Origin: an uncultured Candidatus Saccharibacteria bacterium
Lineage (GTDB): Bacteria; Patescibacteriota; Minisyncoccia; Phycocordibacterales; WO2-35-19
Direction of reading: 5' to 3'
NCBI GenBank assembly: GCA_964630525.1
Contig: CAZVUY010000001.1
Location: 114,901 to 178,900, forward strand
DNA length: 64,000 nt
The notes beneath the pieces are model-generated. The model was not told the DNA's origin, ran no database searches, and was given only the letters and a program-made list of their open reading frames with translations. The translations under genes and the position numbers were made by a program. Shown piece by piece: positions 46,371-52,607 of this stretch (position 1 is the first letter of the stretch; each line of letters starts with the position of its first letter).

Positions 46371-46799
46371 ATGGAAAATCAAAGTTTATTTAAAGAATAC
46401 AAAGGAGTTTTTGAAGAAGAAGTCGAAACTCCAAAAGAAAAGAAAGAGCTTGAATATACGTATTCTCCTTTTGCCCTACAAGATGCGATTGGGGAGCGGA
46501 ATGTTAAAAATATTTGGATACAATACAACAAACTCATCTTCCAAGGTGTTGAACCCGAAGAGTTGGTCCATAAAATTGTTGGCAAAGTGAGAGATATGGT
46601 GGCGATCGGTGCTGGGGCTAGTGCGCTAGACTTGGGTATCAAAGATTATCCATTCAATAAATCAAAAAAAGATTTGAAAAATTGGAAAACAGACGATTTG
46701 AAAAATTTTTATACCAAACTAATCACTCTTTATCACGAATCAAGAATGGGTGGTGATGAGCTAGGGATTGCTTTAGAGAAAGCACTGCTAAGTTTATAA
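46371..46799 (+). CDS. Hypothetical protein; its last ~25 codons are duplicated at 48122-48199
   Basis: The C-terminus is ...HESRMGGDELGIALEKALLSL. Confidence 0.5.
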   Translation: MENQSLFKEYKGVFEEEVETPKEKKELEYTYSPFALQDAIGERNVKNIWIQYNKLIFQGVEPEELVHKIVGKVRDMVAIGAGASALDLGIKDYPFNKSKKDLKNWKTDDLKNFYTKLITLYHESRMGGDELGIALEKALLSL

Positions 46800-46842
46800 T
46801 TACACCGAATTATAGTATGGAGATAAAGTAACGAATAAGTGC

Positions 46843-48108
46843 TTACCCAGCAAAACCTATAAAAGCGACGTATCTCCCAATTACAGCTCCAACTATCACA
46901 ATAATAATACACACGGAAAGAGTGATCATCAGATGAGATGGAGTGGCGTTAGTCGCTATTCCAGATAATTTCTTTTTATTGTTAAACTTGTAAGCCATTA
47001 CGGTAAAAATTATTGCGGAAATCCAGTAAAAAAAGATTGGGTCTGTTGTTTGTCCCACTACTTCACCCAAACGGGCAACAAAAATATTCCTGTAGGCGCT
47101 GTTTAGGAAACCATATTCCGAAGTTAGGGTAGACAATAAAGCGAGAATACTTGTAAAAAACCCTGCAAAAGAATAAACGTTTATTTTTACAAAATCATTC
47201 GTATTGTTTTTATAAATTAAAAATCCAATAAAGATGATTAGTAGAATTCGCATGATGTTTGTAAAAACCCCAGTCTCTAAGCCGGGAGTAATTTTTACAT
47301 CATCAATCATTGTGGGAAAATTTGTTGTCGTGTAATCCAACCACTGGCCCCTCTCTTTTTGTAACTGCTCTAATGTTGCAATATCGCTGATTTTTCTTAC
47401 CTGACTGTAAGAATTGTATGCTACATGGGGGTAAACGCTCCTATAAATTCCTGGCGAGATTTCCCCTTCATAACCTATTCCACCCGGACTGTATTTAACG
47501 GTATAATCCGCGGCGGGGACACTTATTATGTAATCATTATATTCTGCTGCTAATGCGTATATGTCGGTCACATCTACGTTGTCAAAATACTTTGTAATTT
47601 TAAAATAATGAGTACATGAACCATTACCACATAAGAAATTTATAATTTCTGTATCAGGGGCTTGGCCACTTGTTACAGGAAGACCATTACTTTGGGGGAA
47701 AGGCGTCTGGTCATCAGTGGTTACAGTAGGAATTGTTATTCCAAATTTATTACTAATTTCTAAACTCCCAGGAGCAATAATATATATCTTAAAACCATAG
47801 CCAGAACCATAAATGTCTGGAACAATCAAACTATATGAACCATTATTTGGTACTCCGGAAGCAATTTCATATACATAATTTCTGTCAGGGTTGTCGTTAT
47901 TCGGTACTTCTAGCTTAATATCAACAGTAGGAGAATTGGTGAAAGTGTTCCACTTTATATCAAAACTTGAACCTTGGACCAAATTTTCATTACCACTAGG
48001 GGCAAGAATAAAAGAGCTTGGGCTCGGTGTAGTAACTTGCGCGTAGATATGGAATGGGAATAAGACTAAAAACTCAAAAATAGCTATAAACGCTATTATC
48101 CTTCTCAT
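46843..48108 (-). CDS. Hypothetical surface protein: signal peptide, extracellular domain, C-terminal multi-TM anchor
   Basis: It is 421 aa with at least 4 C-terminal hydrophobic helices. Direct repeats at 46732-46765 and 48132-48165 bracket it. Confidence 0.55.
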   Translation of the reverse strand: MRRIIAFIAIFEFLVLFPFHIYAQVTTPSPSSFILAPSGNENLVQGSSFDIKWNTFTNSPTVDIKLEVPNNDNPDRNYVYEIASGVPNNGSYSLIVPDIYGSGYGFKIYIIAPGSLEISNKFGITIPTVTTDDQTPFPQSNGLPVTSGQAPDTEIINFLCGNGSCTHYFKITKYFDNVDVTDIYALAAEYNDYIISVPAADYTVKYSPGGIGYEGEISPGIYRSVYPHVAYNSYSQVRKISDIATLEQLQKERGQWLDYTTTNFPTMIDDVKITPGLETGVFTNIMRILLIIFIGFLIYKNNTNDFVKINVYSFAGFFTSILALLSTLTSEYGFLNSAYRNIFVARLGEVVGQTTDPIFFYWISAIIFTVMAYKFNNKKKLSGIATNATPSHLMITLSVCIIIVIVGAVIGRYVAFIGFAG

Positions 48109-48239
48109 TCTGAAATATTACATGAACCAACATCACGAATCAAGAATGGGTGGTGATGAGCTAGGTCTTGACCTCGAAAAGGCGATTCTCAAACTTTGAT
48201 TTATTATAATTTTATAGTATATTTGCTCTTGTATTTATT

Positions 48240-48315
48240 GCGCCCGTAGCTCAGTCGGTAGAGCAGCTCCCTTTTAAGGAGATGGTCGTAGGTTCGATTC
48301 CTACCGGGCGCACCA
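48240..48315 (+). tRNA. tRNA-Lys (anticodon UUU)
   Basis: Acceptor GCGCCCG/CGGGCGC, D-arm GCUC-AGUCGGUA-GAGC, anticodon loop CUUUUAA, T-arm GUAGG-UUCGAUU-CCUAC and an encoded CCA. Confidence 0.85.
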
Positions 48316-49779
48316 GAAAGGAAATTGCAAGTCAGAGCTCGCCGCCTCGCTCTGCTCGGCGGCTCGCGCGTATTGTATTTTCGGCTCAAAACGGAATTCG
48401 CGATTTCGCAAAACATGGTTCGCGCCGATGTTTTTTAGAAATGCTGTCATTTTGGCAAAATCATTTTCGTTAGTCAGATTCGCGGCTTGATTCAAGGATA
48501 AAACAAATTCACGAGCCGGTTCGAGCCAAGACGCTCCTTTTTGCTCGATGTCGGTAATTTTCTCCTCCAATCGCACTTTTTCATACACGAGAGAGTTCTT
48601 TTTGGCGGCGTATTCGTCTGTGGATAGCGCGTCAGAAAGATAAAGGTTGAGAAGTTTTTCGAGCTTTGCCTCAATCTGCGCGAGTTCTCTTTTTAGAGTT
48701 TCCGCTTCTGTTCGCGCTTCCTCCTTTGCTTGCTCCTCGTCTTGTTCCAACGCCGCCAAAACTTTCTTGGTGTCTTGGCCCGATAAAGAAACTTTTTGAA
48801 GATAAGTTTTGATTTGCGCGGCAAGCATAGTTTCGCTGATGTAGCGTTCCGGGCACGCGCCTCGTTTTTTGGTACAGCGATAGTAGGTATAAGAGCCACC
48901 ATTGCCTTTTGCATATTGCGCGGTAATAGAACAACCGCACGAGGCGCATTTGAGTAGTCCGAGGAACGCGAAACTGTGTTTGCGGTCTGGTCGCACCTTG
49001 CCGCGCTTTTGCATAACTTCTTGGCATTTATCAAAAAGTTTCTTTGAAATTAACGGCTCGTGTTTTCCCTCAAAAGTTTCCGACTTGTACCTCATCAAAC
49101 CAGTGTAGAAAGGATTTTGGAGTATGGACTGAACATTGCTTAATGATATTTTCTTGCCTTTGTTGCCGAGCAGTTTCTTTTTCTCACACCAATTTGCGAG
49201 AGCAGAAAGTGGATATGCTCCGGTGGCGTAGAGTTCAAACATTTTTCTCACTTTCGGTGCTTTGTCGGGGTCAATATCAATTATTCTCGTCTTGGGATTG
49301 TTGAGATAGCCCACCGGAGCCCAGCCGGGCCATACTCCATTTCGTATCTTTTGCCGCAAACCTCTTTTTACATTCTCTCTCAAATTGTCTACGAAATATT
49401 TACTCTGTCCGAAAGCAATGTTCAACATAAACAAGCCTTGTGGTGTCGGTTCAAACCAAAAAGTCGGAAACTTGAGGGAACGAATCAAGCCGCGATCAAT
49501 CAGATGTATGATTTTGCCTCCGTCCACCGAATTTCGGGCAAGGCGGTCGGGGTGCCACGCGATAATGCCGTCTGCTTTTTGTCGTTCAATCAATGACAGC
49601 ATTTCTGCGAACTTCGTTCGCCCGGGCTCTTTTGCGGTTTTCGCCTCCTCAAAGGAGGCGACAATTTCAAGTTTTTCTTTGACGGCGAATGCGCGCAACT
49701 CTTCAAGTTGCGCCTGAATAGAAAGCACCTGTCTGTCCTCTTCCTCTGTACTTTTTCTTGCGTAGAGTATGTATCTCAT
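48301..49779 (-). CDS. Large serine recombinase (resolvase/invertase catalytic domain + recombinase domain + zinc ribbon)
   Basis: It carries YARKST and the active-site Ser region, ...VGYLNNPKT..., CxxC...C, and a coiled-coil C-terminus. The ORF reads through IR-A into the tRNA, so the true 3' end is uncertain. GC content is visibly higher than in flanking genes. Confidence 0.8.
   Translation of the reverse strand: MRYILYARKSTEEEDRQVLSIQAQLEELRAFAVKEKLEIVASFEEAKTAKEPGRTKFAEMLSLIERQKADGIIAWHPDRLARNSVDGGKIIHLIDRGLIRSLKFPTFWFEPTPQGLFMLNIAFGQSKYFVDNLRENVKRGLRQKIRNGVWPGWAPVGYLNNPKTRIIDIDPDKAPKVRKMFELYATGAYPLSALANWCEKKKLLGNKGKKISLSNVQSILQNPFYTGLMRYKSETFEGKHEPLISKKLFDKCQEVMQKRGKVRPDRKHSFAFLGLLKCASCGCSITAQYAKGNGGSYTYYRCTKKRGACPERYISETMLAAQIKTYLQKVSLSGQDTKKVLAALEQDEEQAKEEARTEAETLKRELAQIEAKLEKLLNLYLSDALSTDEYAAKKNSLVYEKVRLEEKITDIEQKGASWLEPAREFVLSLNQAANLTNENDFAKMTAFLKNIGANHVLRNREFRFEPKIQYARAAEQSEAASSDLQFPFWCAR
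48309..48408. repeat. ~100-bp perfect inverted repeat IR-A (partner 49826-49925) bracketing the serine recombinase; begins inside the tRNA-Lys 3' end
   Basis: gcaccagaaaggaaattgcaagtcagagctcgcc...cggaattcgcgatttcg has an exact reverse complement at 49826-49925. Confidence 0.7.
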
Positions 49780-49825
49780 GTTGTTTTGATTGAATTAAGG
49801 ATTAAAAATTTTTCTTCCCCTCAAA

Positions 49826-49925
49826 CGAAATCGCGAATTCCGTTTTGAGCCGAAAATACAATACGCGCGAGCCGCCGAGCAGAGCGAGGCGGCGAGCTCT
49901 GACTTGCAATTTCCTTTCTGGTGCA
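49826..49925. repeat. IR-A' (inverted copy of 48309-48408)
   Basis: It is an exact reverse complement of IR-A. The 26-bp IR-C ggattaaaaatttttcttcccctcaa (49799-49824) precedes it, and its partner is at 50061-50086. Confidence 0.7.
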
Positions 49926-50012
49926 GGATACTTGAATTAGTGCGAACCCACCGCGCCTTCGGCGCGGCACAACCCCCGCCAAAAATGCAGGCGGCGAAGC
50001 CGCACCGCTCAA
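49921..50012. repeat. ~92-bp perfect inverted repeat IR-B (partner 51006-51097) bracketing a membrane-protein gene
   Basis: gtgcaggatacttgaattagtgcgaacccaccgcgccttcggcgcggcacaacccccgccaaaaatgcaggcggcgaagccgcaccgctcaa has an exact reverse complement at 51006-51097. Confidence 0.7.
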
Positions 50013-50257
50013 AACCGCAAAAGAGCCCGGAAAAAACATCGGCGCGAACCATGTTTTGAATTGAGGGGAAGAAAAATTTTTAATCCAATAAATTCCCAAG
50101 GAAGAAGCCGCAATCGTGCGGATTTTTCGTTGCCCTTGACGTAAGGTACGGAATATGCTATGCTTATTTGCGAAAGATTGAGCCATGGTGGCTTGGTCGC
50201 AATAGCACATTTTCAACTCAAAAAACGGAGGTGCAGCTTGAGCGCAGAAACGATTGG

Positions 50258-50849
50258 CATGGTTTCTGGGCTGTTGGTGGTGGCGAGCGTCATCCCTTAC
50301 AGCATCAGAACCCACCAGGGCAAGGTGCAGCCGAACCTGACGAGCTGGTCGCTCTGGACGCTGATCGGCCTCGCCCTCTTGCTCACTTACAAGAGTTCGG
50401 GTGCCGAAGCGAACGTCTGGCCAGCGGTGTTCGGGTTCACTAACCCGCTCCTCATCACCTTGCTTGTTCTCAAACAGCATGGTGGGTGGACGAAGCCAAA
50501 CCGAGTCGAGGTCGCTTGTCTCGTGTTTGGCCTGTTGTCTCTCGGCCTGTGGCTGGGAGTTCGCGAAAACAAGGAGATGGCCCAATGGGCTCTCTATCTG
50601 GCAATTGTCGCGGACTTGTTCGCGGCGATTCCCACGATTGTGTTCGTGTGGACGCAACCGAATGGCGACCGACCGTTTGCTTGGGCGTTCTTCGCCGTCG
50701 GCTATGGTCTGGCAATCTTCGCCATTACCGAACACACCTTCGCGAACTACGTTCTCCCGCTCTACATGTTCTTCGGAGCGTTGAGCGTTACTCTCCCACT
50801 CGTTCTGTATCGGTGGCGACACAAAGTCCCGTTGTCGGAGTGGGTATGA
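50258..50849 (+). CDS. Hypothetical polytopic membrane protein (about 6 TM) inside IR-B/IR-B' segment
   Basis: The sequence from MVSGLLVVASVIPYS... onward is GC-rich. The track ORF starts at 50160. The antisense ORF 49821-50975 is an alternative that I judge spurious. Confidence 0.45.
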
Positions 50850-51005
50850 GTCAGAGACGAATAGCAAATCCGAGGCCCCTTGTGGTAGCAACATCACCAC
50901 TTGGGGCCTTTCTTCTTTTTGATTTGTTTGGTTATTTTTCATACAATACATTTGGTGTTTGCTTCGCAAACTCACATTTATTCGCCGTCAAAGAAAAACT
51001 TGAAA

Positions 51006-51097
51006 TTGAGCGGTGCGGCTTCGCCGCCTGCATTTTTGGCGGGGGTTGTGCCGCGCCGAAGGCGCGGTGGGTTCGCACTAATTCAAGTATCCTGCAC
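51006..51097. repeat. IR-B' (inverted copy of 49921-50012)
   Basis: It is an exact reverse complement of IR-B. Confidence 0.7.
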
Positions 51098-51280
51098 AAA
51101 ATAGCGGAGCAATTTTGTGCGCCCGAGCAAGCAAACTGCTTTGCTTGCGGGTAGGAATCGAACGGCGGAATGTGAAATTTGGAGCACCAAATTTCCATGA
51201 GCCGGTGCCCAGACCAAAAATTTGTGACTGACAAATTTTTGAGTCGAGGGAGATATTCCTACCGAGATTTTATTATTATC

Positions 51281-51309
51281 TTGACAAATCCTTCCCAAAG
51301 AGGTAATTT
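51281..51309 (+). promoter_or_regulatory. Sigma70-like promoter (TTGACA-17-TAATTT) with strong SD AAGGAGG before 51387
   Basis: ttgacaaatccttcccaaagaggtaattt is followed by ggctaaggaggtcgcATG. Confidence 0.45.
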
Positions 51310-51386
51310 TGTGGTGGAACCGACTCAGACTTTTCCTATATGGGATTGCTCTGAAATCTACAAGCCTATATGGCTAAGGAGGTCGC

Positions 51387-51923
51387 ATGATAACACAAAG
51401 AGCCTTCAAAAAGCTCGCTGAACAGAACCGTTGGTTGGTTGGTGCCTTGGAAAATCTGAAGCATCCCGACGACGACAGACCGTTTGAACGACGGGTCAAG
51501 GAGAGCATTGCCTTTATCGCTTTTCGCCCATTTGAGAAGCTGAGTCCAAACTGGCTGGCAAAGGGTGAATTTTACCCAATCTTCCACAAATCTCGGATGG
51601 CTGGAAGTGACGGAGCAATGTGTAGCTCCTATCCGCTTATTGTTTTTCATAAAGAGGGTTGGGAAGGCTTCAAGTATGTCCAACTCTCTCCACTCAACAC
51701 GGGTCTGACGATCGGGAAATGTATGGAGTGGTATGTAGACACTGCAAAGAAGAATGGATATCCAAAATGTATTGCCTTTGATGCAGTTATTATCCCGCTT
51801 CAAGTTCGCATCAACCCACACCGAATGATCGCCGAGTGTTACGAGATTTACCGATTTCCCGAGCCACTTGATTTTAAGTTTGACGACTTCAAGAAGTGGC
51901 TGGTAACCGCACCGCAGGAGTAA
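51387..51923 (+). CDS. Hypothetical protein (island cargo)
   Basis: It is 178 aa with no motif I recognise. It has a strong RBS and promoter. Confidence 0.5.
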   Translation: MITQRAFKKLAEQNRWLVGALENLKHPDDDRPFERRVKESIAFIAFRPFEKLSPNWLAKGEFYPIFHKSRMAGSDGAMCSSYPLIVFHKEGWEGFKYVQLSPLNTGLTIGKCMEWYVDTAKKNGYPKCIAFDAVIIPLQVRINPHRMIAECYEIYRFPEPLDFKFDDFKKWLVTAPQE

Positions 51924-52202
51924 TCAGAGGCTCGCCTAGTAGTGGAGACACGAACGGCGAGTCTTCTTCGTTTTTATATTGACAATTCGTGCACAAAACA
52001 ATATTCTTCCGTCTAAGTCAGGTTCCTTGCGGAATGGAATGGGTAGAACGCGGTCAAGTCTGAACTGCAAGCTAGTATAGAGTTCGTGCCATTCTTCACT
52101 TGCTCCAACGTATAAGTGAGCGAGGCTTCTCTTGGGTTGGAAATCTGACAAGTGCCCGGGCGTTCACGCGTCCGGGCTATAATTTATACAAATAAGTATT
52201 TT

Positions 52203-52607
52203 CTACAACGGTAAATCGACAGCGAAGGCGCCGGCGCCGGAGAGGAGAAGGGAGAGTAGGATTGATAAAATCAAAATATAGAAGACAAAGTTTCTTTTGA
52301 GAATGCTCGGGTCTTTATATTCCACATAAGCTTCGGCAAAGGTGAGGAGGGCGAGCACTAGGGCAATGATTTGGGTATAAAATCCAACTAGCAACATAAG
52401 TCCTCCGATCACCTCGACGGTACCCAGTATTTTGACTGCCAATTCTGGTCTCGGTATTCGGAGGGCGGAACAGGAAACTATCCAACACCTCTTTTCGTTT
52501 TTGAAGGCGAGAGCGCCCAAATTTACGAATATCAAACCCACCACCACCCGGATAATAAAAGGCGAAAGAAGCGAGAAGGCGAGCAGGTCTGGAAATGGAT
52601 TTAACAT
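52203..52607 (-). CDS. DoxX-family membrane protein
   Basis: It has four hydrophobic helices and LLSPFIIRVVVGLIFVNLGALAF...GTVEVIGGLMLLVGFYTQIIALV. Confidence 0.7.
   Translation of the reverse strand: MLNPFPDLLAFSLLSPFIIRVVVGLIFVNLGALAFKNEKRCWIVSCSALRIPRPELAVKILGTVEVIGGLMLLVGFYTQIIALVLALLTFAEAYVEYKDPSILKRNFVFYILILSILLSLLLSGAGAFAVDLPL

Follow-up and report, generated by a model that had tools for sequence, protein, structure and literature searches.

The tRNA-Lys locus and its empty allele

We examined a 64,000-nt stretch of a contig from an uncultured Candidatus Saccharibacteria bacterium (hereafter, the window), in which a tRNA-Lys(UUU) gene is met by a convergent large serine recombinase (LSR) gene, followed by a single gene for a multi-pass membrane protein and a series of inverted repeats (Table 1). 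An earlier note on this DNA had proposed that a serine recombinase brought horizontally acquired DNA to the tRNA gene. The tRNA gene and the adjoining LSR proved real by ARAGORN, Rfam and Pfam domains, and the long inverted repeats were confirmed. The recombinase carries, in the order that characterises LSRs, the domains PF00239 Resolvase (E = 2.5e-22), PF07508 Recombinase (1e-18) and PF13408 Zn_ribbon_recom (2.4e-9). Near its N-terminus lies a YARKST motif (MRYILYARKSTEEEDRQ) that conforms to the Y-x-R-x-S-T signature and whose Ser10 is the presumed catalytic serine; the Y-x-R-K-S codons are kept in 43 aligned loci. Its closest solved structures are the SPbeta integrase (9dxh) and the A118/LI integrase (4kis), and it has more than 7,700 homologues. 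The last 15 nt of the recombinase ORF overlap the tRNA 3′ end, with the stop codon inside the tRNA gene. A promoter-like site (50136-50164) precedes the membrane-protein gene and a GC hairpin with a T-run, read directly from the sequence, lies 3′ of it (50872-50921).

Table 1. Positions of the features in the window.
Feature	Position	Strand	Details
tRNA-Lys(UUU) gene (ttt)	48240-48315	+	ARAGORN; Rfam RF00005, 74 bits; four-site comparison
Large serine recombinase	48301-49779	-	492 aa; PF00239, PF07508, PF13408
Inserted element	48314-51093		2,780 bp; from L003 alignment
P1 arm (P′ half of attL)	48310-48408		99 nt; perfect inverted partner 49826-49924
P2	48409-48436		28 nt, in recombinase CDS; perfect inverted partner 50031-50058
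P3	48437-48451		15 nt; inverted partner 49592-49606; both arms in recombinase CDS
P4	49622-49641		In recombinase codons ~30-53; partner P4′ 50011-50030
Small palindrome (hp)	49642-49660		Between P4 and P5, in recombinase codons ~30-53
P5	49662-49690		In recombinase codons ~30-53; partner P5′ 50980-51008
P7a	49799-49824		26 nt just upstream of recombinase start (5′UTR or promoter); inverted partner P7b
Internal attP-type site (P6-GCAC-P1)	49826-50012	-	P1′ 49826-49924 and P6a 49921-50012
Staple segment P4′-P2′-P7b	50011-50086		Reverse complement of recombinase nt 139-158, nt 1344-1371 and upstream region
P7b	50061-50086		Inverted partner of P7a; precedes cargo gene
Cargo gene, multi-pass membrane protein	50259-50849	+	196 aa (229 aa if start is 50160); no Pfam family
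P5′	50980-51008		29 nt; reverse complement of recombinase nt 90-118
P6b arm (P half of attR)	51006-51097		92 nt; perfect inverted partner 49921-50012

A search for an empty attB in relatives gave the exact ends of the insertion. The contig of one relative (L003, ~96% identity), which comes from an independent run and served as the empty-allele comparison, matches window positions 48259-48313 with its nt 1-55 (100%) and positions 51094-52294 with its nt 52-1253 (95.9% over the 1.2 kb flank), the tRNA-Lys 3′ end being fused straight to 51094 via a shared GCAC. Because L003 joins tRNA-Lys directly to 51094, its site is an empty attB, and the two contigs display the occupied and the empty allele of one tRNA-Lys site, as is typical of a tRNA island. 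The ends are ambiguous only by the 4-nt common core GCAC (48310-48313 / 51094-51097); at the distal end nothing else of the tRNA 3′ segment is directly repeated. LSR-driven integration of this DNA is well supported, and the sequence comparisons together indicate that a 2.8-kb integrative element adjoining the tRNA-Lys 3′ end was very probably inserted by its own LSR, so that the core of the earlier idea holds. The element contains the LSR gene, the GC-rich membrane-protein gene and the repeats, and no other gene; a gene for a recombination directionality factor was not found in it, and such a factor may be encoded elsewhere. The tRNA-Lys locus is variable on both flanks, and an inverted tRNA-Lys 3′ fragment lies outside the element at 51113-51163.

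The earlier note had drawn a larger island, of 3.95 kb (48240-52190), with a 178-aa ORF and a DoxX-family gene as additional cargo. The 178-aa protein is exactly identical in L003, where the start of DoxX, the part within reach of that contig, is also present and the element absent, and the order tRNA-Lys-DoxX-SpoU is kept in four further relatives (L086, L087, L088 and L093; 50-70% amino-acid identity), which marks it as the ancestral gene order as far as these comparisons reach. Since both genes occur at the empty site and this order is ancestral, neither is cargo. In favour of the larger island, no homologue of the 178-aa ORF was found in the distant relatives examined, and GC remains at 0.46-0.47, above the window mean, to ~53.5 kb; however, no repeat or att-like junction was found near 52190, and we regard an island of ~4 kb as very improbable.

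Windowed analysis confirmed the compositional deviation on which that proposal was built, the GC content of 48240-52190 being 0.486 vs 0.429 for the whole window (top 0.25% of same-size windows). The rise is real; its left-hand step had been overstated, as an unusual AT-rich segment at 46.3-48.2 kb (GC 0.36) exaggerates it, and the recombinase gene is of ordinary composition (GC3 0.495). Most of the signal is contributed by the single cargo gene together with the GC-rich repeat arms, rather than by the recombinase. The peak 500-nt GC of the whole window (0.582, at 50251) lies within the cargo gene, whose GC is 0.575 and whose GC3 is 0.74, vs 0.31-0.54 in neighbouring genes; it codes for a predicted membrane protein and is of foreign composition. 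Position 52190 is neither a compositional nor a structural boundary: GC is 0.45-0.47 in the 178-aa ORF, in DoxX and SpoU and in the genes that follow, and similar in PolA (0.44), and the stretch from 57.4 to ~60 kb is as GC-rich as the island.

Attachment sites and the choice of tRNA

In a four-site comparison of attB, attL, attR and the site inside the element, the arithmetic of an attP × attB exchange fits base for base, and the same logic holds at ~35 other loci. The attachment site has the 3′ part of tRNA-Lys as its B arm, and the encoded CCA of the occupied tRNA gene is supplied by the element, replacing the unencoded tail of the tRNA. Neither attL nor attR has a duplication beyond the 4-nt core, and this core co-varies with the tRNA, the forms being GCAC(CA), CCAC(CA) for Ala and GAGC(CA) for Asn. 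A T-loop-like GTTCRA motif occurs in both arms, at a distance from the core of 18 nt on the tRNA side and of 23 nt in the P6 arm (as GGTTCGCAC in P6b, together with GC hairpins). The offset between the arms is exactly 5 in 18/18 measurable loci, with the element arm always showing the greater distance between motif and crossover. In LSRs, the motif read by the ZD is shifted by 5 bp between attB and attP (PMC3783163), and the sites found here show both a tiny core and an arm motif whose distance to the centre is 5 bp shorter in attB. No conserved motif was found in the right half of attB across the loci compared.

The element is not bound to tRNA-Lys. A 92% identical element (L004) occupies tRNA-Val instead, and in 63/71 loci a convergent tRNA gene holds the recombinase 3′ end, with 25 anticodon species covered. 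By the four-site comparison, the recombinase exchanged strands between attP (P6 end, GCAC, P1 start) and attB (tRNA 3′ end, GCAC, downstream DNA), which produced attL at 48310 and attR at 51097. To judge from the spacing, it is probably the zinc-ribbon domain that reads GTTCRA, the universal T-loop sequence, in the tRNA arm and its counterpart, 5 bp more distant, in the P6 arm. Such T-loop reading would account for the use of nearly any tRNA gene by the family, while a few core bases (acceptor end, discriminator, CCA) would be matched to the tRNA class used.

The inverted-repeat mosaic and its possible roles

The internal attP-type site consists of the 99 nt of P1′ and the 92 nt of P6a, which share the 4-nt core (187 nt in all), and equals the left half of attR joined to the right half of attL, with identity over the 80 nt displayed. 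This inverted joint of the element ends lies between recombinase and cargo in every canonical member and occupies the same position in nearly all related loci. The terminal inverted repeats of an insertion sequence are not present, as the start of P1 and the end of P6 are unrelated and each pairs with the internal site. Each P6 arm has a terminator-like hairpin at its inner end.

Each of the seven repeat pairs of the window is perfectly matched (100% identity), with junction overlaps of 0-4 nt, and the position of the mosaic is conserved across loci whose recombinases share 62-92% identity. The P1 arm, which also codes for the ~33 final recombinase codons, is 96.9% Watson-Crick paired across 43 loci, with 84/99 positions co-varying. 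Co-variation affects 11/28 positions in P2, 6/20 in P4 and 5/15 in P3 (92.8% paired), the last being one of six nested exact repeats within the recombinase CDS, against 0.07 expected. At the boundary of the tandem cassettes of one locus (L053), recombinase nt 87-154 are unbroken and the P4-hp-P5 stretch is continuous. We know of no counterpart in serine-recombinase biology to conserved, co-varying inverted copies of the attP and of recombinase-gene pieces within the same element.

The cargo sits at the centre of a long palindrome holding two inverted attP copies, one of which splits into attL and attR at integration, with the second remaining whole inside the element. With lower confidence, the cargo cassette may derive from a copy of the recombinase unit that was inverted and lost internal parts while retaining nt ~87-157, nt ~1343-1370 and the upstream region P7. 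Folding of one strand of the element might keep the complementary pieces identical, the fold having two abutting stems (P1 and P6) that three- and four-way junctions hold in place. By means of the double attP, the staples and the nested repeats, a folded strand could restore both attP and the upstream region as duplexes; the single strand could come from DNA uptake, Patescibacteria being naturally competent, or from a replication fork. Against a fold counts that the helices of the mosaic cross one another, so that a planar structure could not accommodate all of them. We tentatively take the folded state to be single-stranded DNA, a reading that we hold to be less likely than not; a read-through RNA ranks below it, and plain gene conversion lower still. 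That this is the first serine-recombinase element with a biology dependent on a folded single DNA strand, with repair keeping the paired pieces identical, is a bolder idea that we consider doubtful.

The repeats could instead serve RNA, if stems formed by read-through transcripts, started at the tRNA promoter or outside the element, were cut by RNase III or hid the recombinase start, insulating the tRNA and silencing the recombinase in the manner of the fold-back inhibition of IS10/IS50. The tRNA end is exactly where the stems begin, both P6 arms have terminator-like hairpins at their inner ends, pairing takes in P7 upstream of the recombinase start and the early codons (P5, P4), and nested long-range complementarity runs through the recombinase CDS. 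However, G:T pairs are not in excess among the mismatches on either strand, the mismatches resembling random new mutations; RNA is therefore not favoured and neither strand is identified. A perfect duplex of 90-100 bp also far exceeds the need of such control, a search of the window for promoter-like sites found none upstream of the staple segment on the recombinase strand, and the repeats have no Rfam family match. We consider this explanation unlikely.

Still less probable is a programmed DNA-inversion switch, akin to a shufflon or invertase system, that flips the recombinase segment between the P1 arms, the cargo segment between the P6 arms or the stretch between the P5 copies and turns genes on or off. 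Both genes are flanked by perfect inverted repeats, a P5 × P5′ flip would sever the N-terminal 30 codons with Ser10, and one locus (L085) has the structure expected from one flip followed by one deletion between the resulting direct repeats. Every piece, however, has a single orientation in all ~60 canonical loci; as no flipped isomers were found in ~60 assemblies, the repeats have no demonstrated recombination role. Moreover, the cargo has its promoter and terminator within its own segment, so a flip would not switch it, the enzyme is of the large integrase type rather than a small Hin/Gin invertase, and the empty site indicates insertion, not inversion. Lastly, we give practically no credence to the mosaic being an assembly or amplification artefact (de Bruijn mis-joins, MDA chimeras) around a mere recombinase gene beside a tRNA, which the perfect identity of the seven pairs and the many related contigs that end just upstream of the recombinase might suggest, since the relative positions are identical in dozens of independent assemblies from different groups and assemblers, the repeats vary between loci yet match within each, the junction overlaps are too short for a k-mer graph join, and L084 and L004 repeat the complete layout at 88-98% identity.

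A family of tRNA-borne elements in Patescibacteria

Relatives of the element occur in at least 545 species genomes, nearly all Patescibacteria, drawn from metagenome bins of which a few carry other labels. The family is widespread in this group, apparently undescribed, and accepts almost all tRNA genes as targets, inserting at their 3′ ends. Several copies per genome are common, every one with a different single gene. The cargo is typically one gene, and 35 loci yielded 33 unrelated cargo families; among the 35 cargo genes compared, that of the window is homologous solely to the L030 cargo.

The LSRs of phages (Listeria A118/LI, Bacillus SPbeta SprA, phiC31, Bxb1) resemble the three-domain enzyme of the element, A118 and SPbeta having the nearest solved structures. 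They also share short att sites with a minimal core, the 5-bp shift of the arm motif (PMC3783163) and attL/attR without long duplication. Instead of a phage, the carrier here is an element of 2.8 kb that has a single cargo gene and no directionality factor gene; many different tRNA 3′ ends are used rather than one locus, and conserved arms of ~90-100 bp accompany a second complete, inverted attP inside. Tycheposons likewise bring cargo to tRNA 3′ ends and build variable tRNA-adjacent regions, each integrase being tied to one tRNA and leaving partial-tRNA direct repeats (10.1101/2020.12.28.424599). They mostly use tyrosine recombinases, whereas here a single serine-recombinase lineage serves many tRNAs with a core of 4-6 nt only.

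As in integrons, the cargo is single-gene and highly diverse, and the occasional tandem cassettes of L053 are each followed by a ~100-nt structured, palindrome-containing module, but each cassette moves with its own recombinase. An integron was rejected, the enzyme being a serine recombinase and IntI tyrosine recombinase, attI and attC being absent. A small invertase of the Hin/Gin/Pin type (~190 aa, C-terminal helix-turn-helix, both orientations) was rejected as well, the enzyme having 492 aa and the loci one orientation. The clostridial transposons Tn4451/TnpX and Tn5397/TndX and the Ccr-moved SCCmec are small to medium elements that carry accessory genes and that LSRs move by way of a circular form, using a 2-bp core. 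The element is likewise small, LSR-moved and accessory-gene-carrying. To our knowledge, those elements have neither a palindromic double joint, nor copies of recombinase-gene pieces, nor tRNA targeting, and the present family differs in being confined mainly to Patescibacteria.

Folded single strands act as recombination substrates or promoters in the CTX phage attP, integron attC and the F plasmid Frpo. By resemblance to these systems only, pairing of inverted copies within one strand could restore a duplex site and, in this element, a duplex P7 as well. The known cases depend on tyrosine recombinases or RNA polymerase, whereas the element has a serine recombinase and its folded strand is hypothetical; we know of no serine recombinase that uses a folded strand.

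For genome engineering, an LSR that reads the T-loop with a short, tunable core would be attractive, since every genome has dozens of such sites, and the conserved repeat copies raise a clear and testable mechanistic question. Patescibacteria have tiny genomes with few recognised mobile elements, and this family would be a major overlooked route of gene exchange among them. If the fold and T-loop reading both proved true, they would amount to a pan-tRNA shuttle for single-gene cassettes, which might be responsible for a large share of gene flow among lineages of Patescibacteria.

Boundaries of the element at tRNA-Lys

An earlier note on this DNA had placed a GC-richer island at 48240-52190 and counted a 178-aa ORF and a DoxX protein among its cargo. 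The tRNA-Lys beside a large serine recombinase (LSR) on which that proposal was built was borne out by ARAGORN, by Rfam and by the domain set: the neighbouring ORF carries Resolvase, Recombinase and zinc-ribbon recombinase domains in this order and is therefore an LSR, its closest solved structures being SPbeta 9dxh and A118 4kis. The final 15 nt of this ORF overlap the 3′ end of tRNA-Lys.

Independent sequencing runs yielded three short contigs that encode exactly this 178-aa protein, two of them (L001 and L002) 100% identical to the window and the third (L003) 95.9% identical across a 1.2 kb flank. The first 55 nt of L003 correspond to the 3′ part of tRNA-Lys and are joined straight to window position 51094 through a common GCAC, so that its attB junction reads tRNA, GCAC, AAAATAGC. 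An empty site, which the earlier note had advised seeking in relatives, thus exists. This direct join and the comparison of the four sites (see table) therefore define the inserted DNA as 48314-51093 (2,780 bp). Within these ends are the recombinase, repeats and a single membrane-protein gene; the 178-aa ORF and DoxX fall beyond them. In relatives with 50-70% amino-acid identity (L086, L087, L088 and L093) we found PolA, the holA-like gene, tRNA-Lys(UUU), DoxX, SpoU, an LTD protein and Fpg; this shared order makes DoxX and SpoU ancestral neighbours of tRNA-Lys. A metagenome scan with SpoU recovered relatives of at most 64% identity, enough for synteny, and no second empty site, while exact-protein look-ups of the recombinase, SpoU and the 142-aa holA-like protein matched no record. 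Results showed a genuine island whose limits had been misplaced. What lies at the 3′ end of tRNA-Lys is an integrative element of 2,780 bp that carries an LSR and a single cargo gene and was very probably integrated by the LSR.

Features of the element and its surroundings. Alignment values are from 43 loci (WC, Watson-Crick pairs; variable, positions with at least two pair types).
Feature	Position	Strand	Length	Details
tRNA-Lys(ttt)	48240-48315	+		
LSR	48301-49779	-	492 aa	
P1	48310-48408 / 49826-49924		99 nt	WC 96.9%; variable 84/99
P2	48409-48436 / 50031-50058		28 nt	WC 89.9%; variable 11/28
P3	48437-48451 / 49592-49606		15 nt	both arms within coding sequence; WC 92.8%; variable 5/15
P4	49622-49641 / 50011-50030		20 nt	WC 92.8%; variable 6/20
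P5	49662-49690 / 50980-51008		29 nt	
P6	49921-50012 / 51006-51097		92 nt	
P7	49799-49824 / 50061-50086		26 nt	
Nested repeats in LSR	gene positions 173/1328, 284/1286, 306/693, 355/638, 734/980, 1018/1168		12-15 nt	
Cargo promoter-like site	50136-50164			
Hairpin and T-run	50872-50921			read directly from sequence
Kre9_KNH membrane protein	46843-48108	-	421 aa	
attB (L003)				left ...CCTACCGGGC; core GCAC; right AAAATAGCGG...
attL (window)				left ...CCTACCGGGC; core GCAC; right CAGAAAGGAA...
attR (window)				left ...CAAGTATCCT; core GCAC; right AAAATAGCGG...
Internal site	49885-49960	opposite		left ...CAAGTATCCT; core GCAC; right CAGAAAGGAA...

The rise in GC reported for 48240-52190 was present (0.486 versus 0.429 for the window, within the top 0.25% of same-size windows), but it is uneven and nothing changes at 52190. 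The peak 500-nt GC of the whole window (0.582) falls within the cargo gene, whose GC3 is 0.74 compared with 0.495 for the recombinase, and the 178-aa ORF, DoxX, SpoU and the genes beyond have a PolA-like GC of 0.45-0.47. The left-hand step looks sharp largely because the stretch at 46.3-48.2 kb is unusually AT-rich (GC 0.36).

On that side of tRNA-Lys (46732-48183), the 142-aa holA-like gene has its 3′ end present twice, as a 52-nt direct repeat (46732-46783 and 48132-48183, 85% identical) that brackets an AT-rich segment (GC 0.36) containing a 421-aa membrane-protein gene with a Kre9_KNH domain. We found no homologue of this gene at the locus in distant relatives, and a second insertion is likely here.

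Just beyond the other end of the element, the minus strand at 51113-51163 repeats part of the tRNA-Lys 3′ end in inverted form: 14 nt at 51150-51163 match the T-arm, and CGGGCGCAC recurs at ~51119-51127. Together with the real tRNA end this fragment generates a near-palindrome around 51098-51118. We considered a minus-strand tRNA gene here and dropped it, the sequence being a fragment only. The empty-site relative shares the fragment at least in its proximal part, inverted CGGGCGCAC included. Since most distant relatives have tRNA-Lys on the other strand, the locus seems likely to have undergone an inversion that broke within the tRNA 3′ end. A perfect 9-bp hairpin, GAAATTTGG AGCA CCAAATTTC, follows at 51174-51195; the two short-read contigs identical to the window both begin within it, at 51190, probably a k-mer graph break at the palindrome.

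A conserved mosaic of inverted repeats

Seven pairs of inverted repeats (P1-P7, see table), all 100% complementary, were found in the window. The inner P1 arm (P1′) and the adjoining P6 arm (P6a) reproduce in full, but inverted, the joint at which the element ends would meet in a circle, and constitute a second attP. The pieces keep their relative positions in nearly all related loci, and their sequences vary across loci yet agree inside each locus: partner columns in the alignment were predominantly Watson-Crick, while control partners shifted by 1-3 columns paired at just 0.2-0.5. An assembly artefact was ruled out by this within-locus match and co-variation and by junctions that overlap by 0-4 nt, less than a k-mer graph would need to join them. 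Six exact, properly nested inverted repeats are additionally present within the coding sequence of the recombinase. Codon shuffling gave a mean of 0.07 and never more than one, and five other window genes had none or one each.

Mismatches in the long arms were rare (55 in 8,137 positions). A strand test comparing G:T with A:C mismatches revealed no asymmetry in the long arms (18 versus 17), and the overall counts (261 versus 313) were unconvincing given shared ancestry. Such scarcity of mismatches, with neither strand showing a G:T bias, suggests that homogenisation acts on the DNA and that the pieces are not being kept as wobble-tolerant RNA. Rfam at permissive thresholds detected nothing but tRNA.

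Two views, one historical and one structural, fit these data. The reverse complement of P4′-P2′ equals recombinase nt 139-158 fused to nt 1344-1371 and looks like an internally deleted copy. In a locus with two tandem cargo cassettes (L053), recombinase nt 87-154 run unbroken at the cassette boundary; the cassette therefore comprises recombinase nt ~87-157, nt ~1343-1370, the upstream region P7 and the cargo. The P6 arms sit exactly at the spot occupied in the intact gene by a small palindrome (49642-49660). The cargo-side edges of P5 and P7 differ by lineage while their other edges are fixed, which fits the historical view, in which a single ancestral rearrangement would have been followed by many cargo replacements.

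According to the structural view, P1 and P6 would form, in one strand, two stems abutting at the core. The P2′-P7b segment would pair with both strands where they emerge from the P1 stem at its inner end, generating a three-way junction with 0-2 nt linkers, and the P4-palindrome-P5 segment would likewise generate a four-way junction on the P6 stem. The two stacked stems would then rebuild a duplex attP, with one strand continuous and the other broken where the host flanks meet the core. This conserved and co-varying architecture could reflect a single-stranded DNA stage that folds, pairing in a read-through RNA, or gene conversion.

Cargo and structural variants

In most loci the P6 arms enclose 0.6-1.8 kb; the locus with tandem cassettes has 2.7 kb there. 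This segment usually contains one ORF, divergent from the recombinase and often starting directly after P7. Among 35 loci we counted 33 unrelated cargo families, which include enzymes (a radical SAM enzyme, SAM methyltransferases, an NAD(P)HX dehydratase and an FAD oxidoreductase), an AHSA1/SRPBCC protein, DUF218, an HTH regulator, Kre9_KNH surface proteins and many unknown membrane or secreted proteins. The window cargo is a 196-aa multi-pass membrane protein, related only to the cargo of L030 among 35 cargo genes compared; Pfam searches with E up to 10 gave no family for it or for the 178-aa ORF. Each P6 arm has a terminator-like hairpin at its inner end. The cargo has a promoter-like site of its own, and P7 was dropped as its only promoter in the window. 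ORFs of 384 aa (49821-50975, minus strand) and 222 aa (50486-51154, plus strand) overlap the cargo gene and repeat arms, in a different frame or on the opposite strand, and look like by-products of GC-rich sequence, not genes.

Several loci depart from this layout. One (L062) lacks cargo, and its two P6 arms adjoin each other to form a palindrome. In two others (L071, 5799-7600; L083, 5794-7506) the P1 arms of the recombinase unit abut tRNA-Ala 3′ ends on both sides, the tRNA-Ala sequences being convergent and L071 having a partial tRNA fragment between the intact tRNA and the P1 arm; such an outcome would be expected from recombination between the internal attP and a second tRNA site. L085 (1-800), from another run and also in tRNA-Lys, has no inverted partners. 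Its recombinase lacks the first ~30 codons, including the catalytic serine, and lies directly downstream of a 67-aa membrane-protein cargo; the order P6-P4-P2-P7-cargo-P5-recombinase would result from one segment flip and one deletion between direct repeats. Finally, a ~105-nt miniature in L028 (720-840), 5 kb from a full element, consists only of the P1 start and P6 end with GCACCA on both sides and may be a non-autonomous remnant. In canonical loci each piece occurs in a single orientation, so routine flipping is not supported.

Distribution and recognition of tRNA targets

The recombinase has >7,700 database relatives, of which the best 120 share 70-94% identity and belong to Patescibacteria wherever named. 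When one genome per species was scanned, at least 545 had a relative, and 80 loci were fetched. A convergent tRNA with its 3′ end touching or overlapping the recombinase stop was present in 63 of the 71 loci that reach beyond the recombinase 3′ end, comprising 25 anticodon species and 13 amino acids. Some bins have two or three copies at separate tRNAs (e.g. L009, L032 and L035), and an element 92% identical to that of the window is sited in tRNA-Val (L004). Scanning 2.9 million viral contigs returned only two partial matches, at contig ends, so a phage is unlikely to be the usual carrier; a prophage remnant was considered and dropped.

The three-junction logic of the window is repeated in ~35 loci, and the shared core tracks the tRNA class: mostly GCAC(CA), with CCAC(CA) in tRNA-Ala lineages and GAGC(CA) or CGGAGC(CA) in tRNA-Asn. 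In the tRNA arm, 18 nt separate the T-loop GTTCRA from the first shared core base, and a matching GTTCRA in the P6 arm lies 23 nt from the core, an offset of exactly 5 nt in 18 of the 18 loci measurable in both. Rutherford and colleagues located the zinc-ribbon-domain motif of a serine integrase 5 bp nearer the centre in attB than in attP (PMC3783163), and the GTTCRA offset supports normal LSR site recognition. From spacing alone, it suggests that the recombinase reads the universal T-loop. On the downstream side of attB, no conserved motif was visible across loci.

The element shares enzyme type and att-site geometry with phage-type serine integrases but differs from them in its size, the many tRNAs used, arms that are long and conserved, an inverted attP kept inside it together with copies of its own gene, and the lack of a directionality factor gene within it. 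With tycheposons it has in common the tRNA habitat and cargo role, although these mostly use tRNA-specific tyrosine recombinases; with integrons it shares single-gene cargo diversity and not at all the mechanism. Our literature search did not find the family described, and since coverage was incomplete an earlier description is possible. The element family is widespread in Patescibacteria and targets tRNAs generally, a breadth that reading of the T-loop, if so, would explain.
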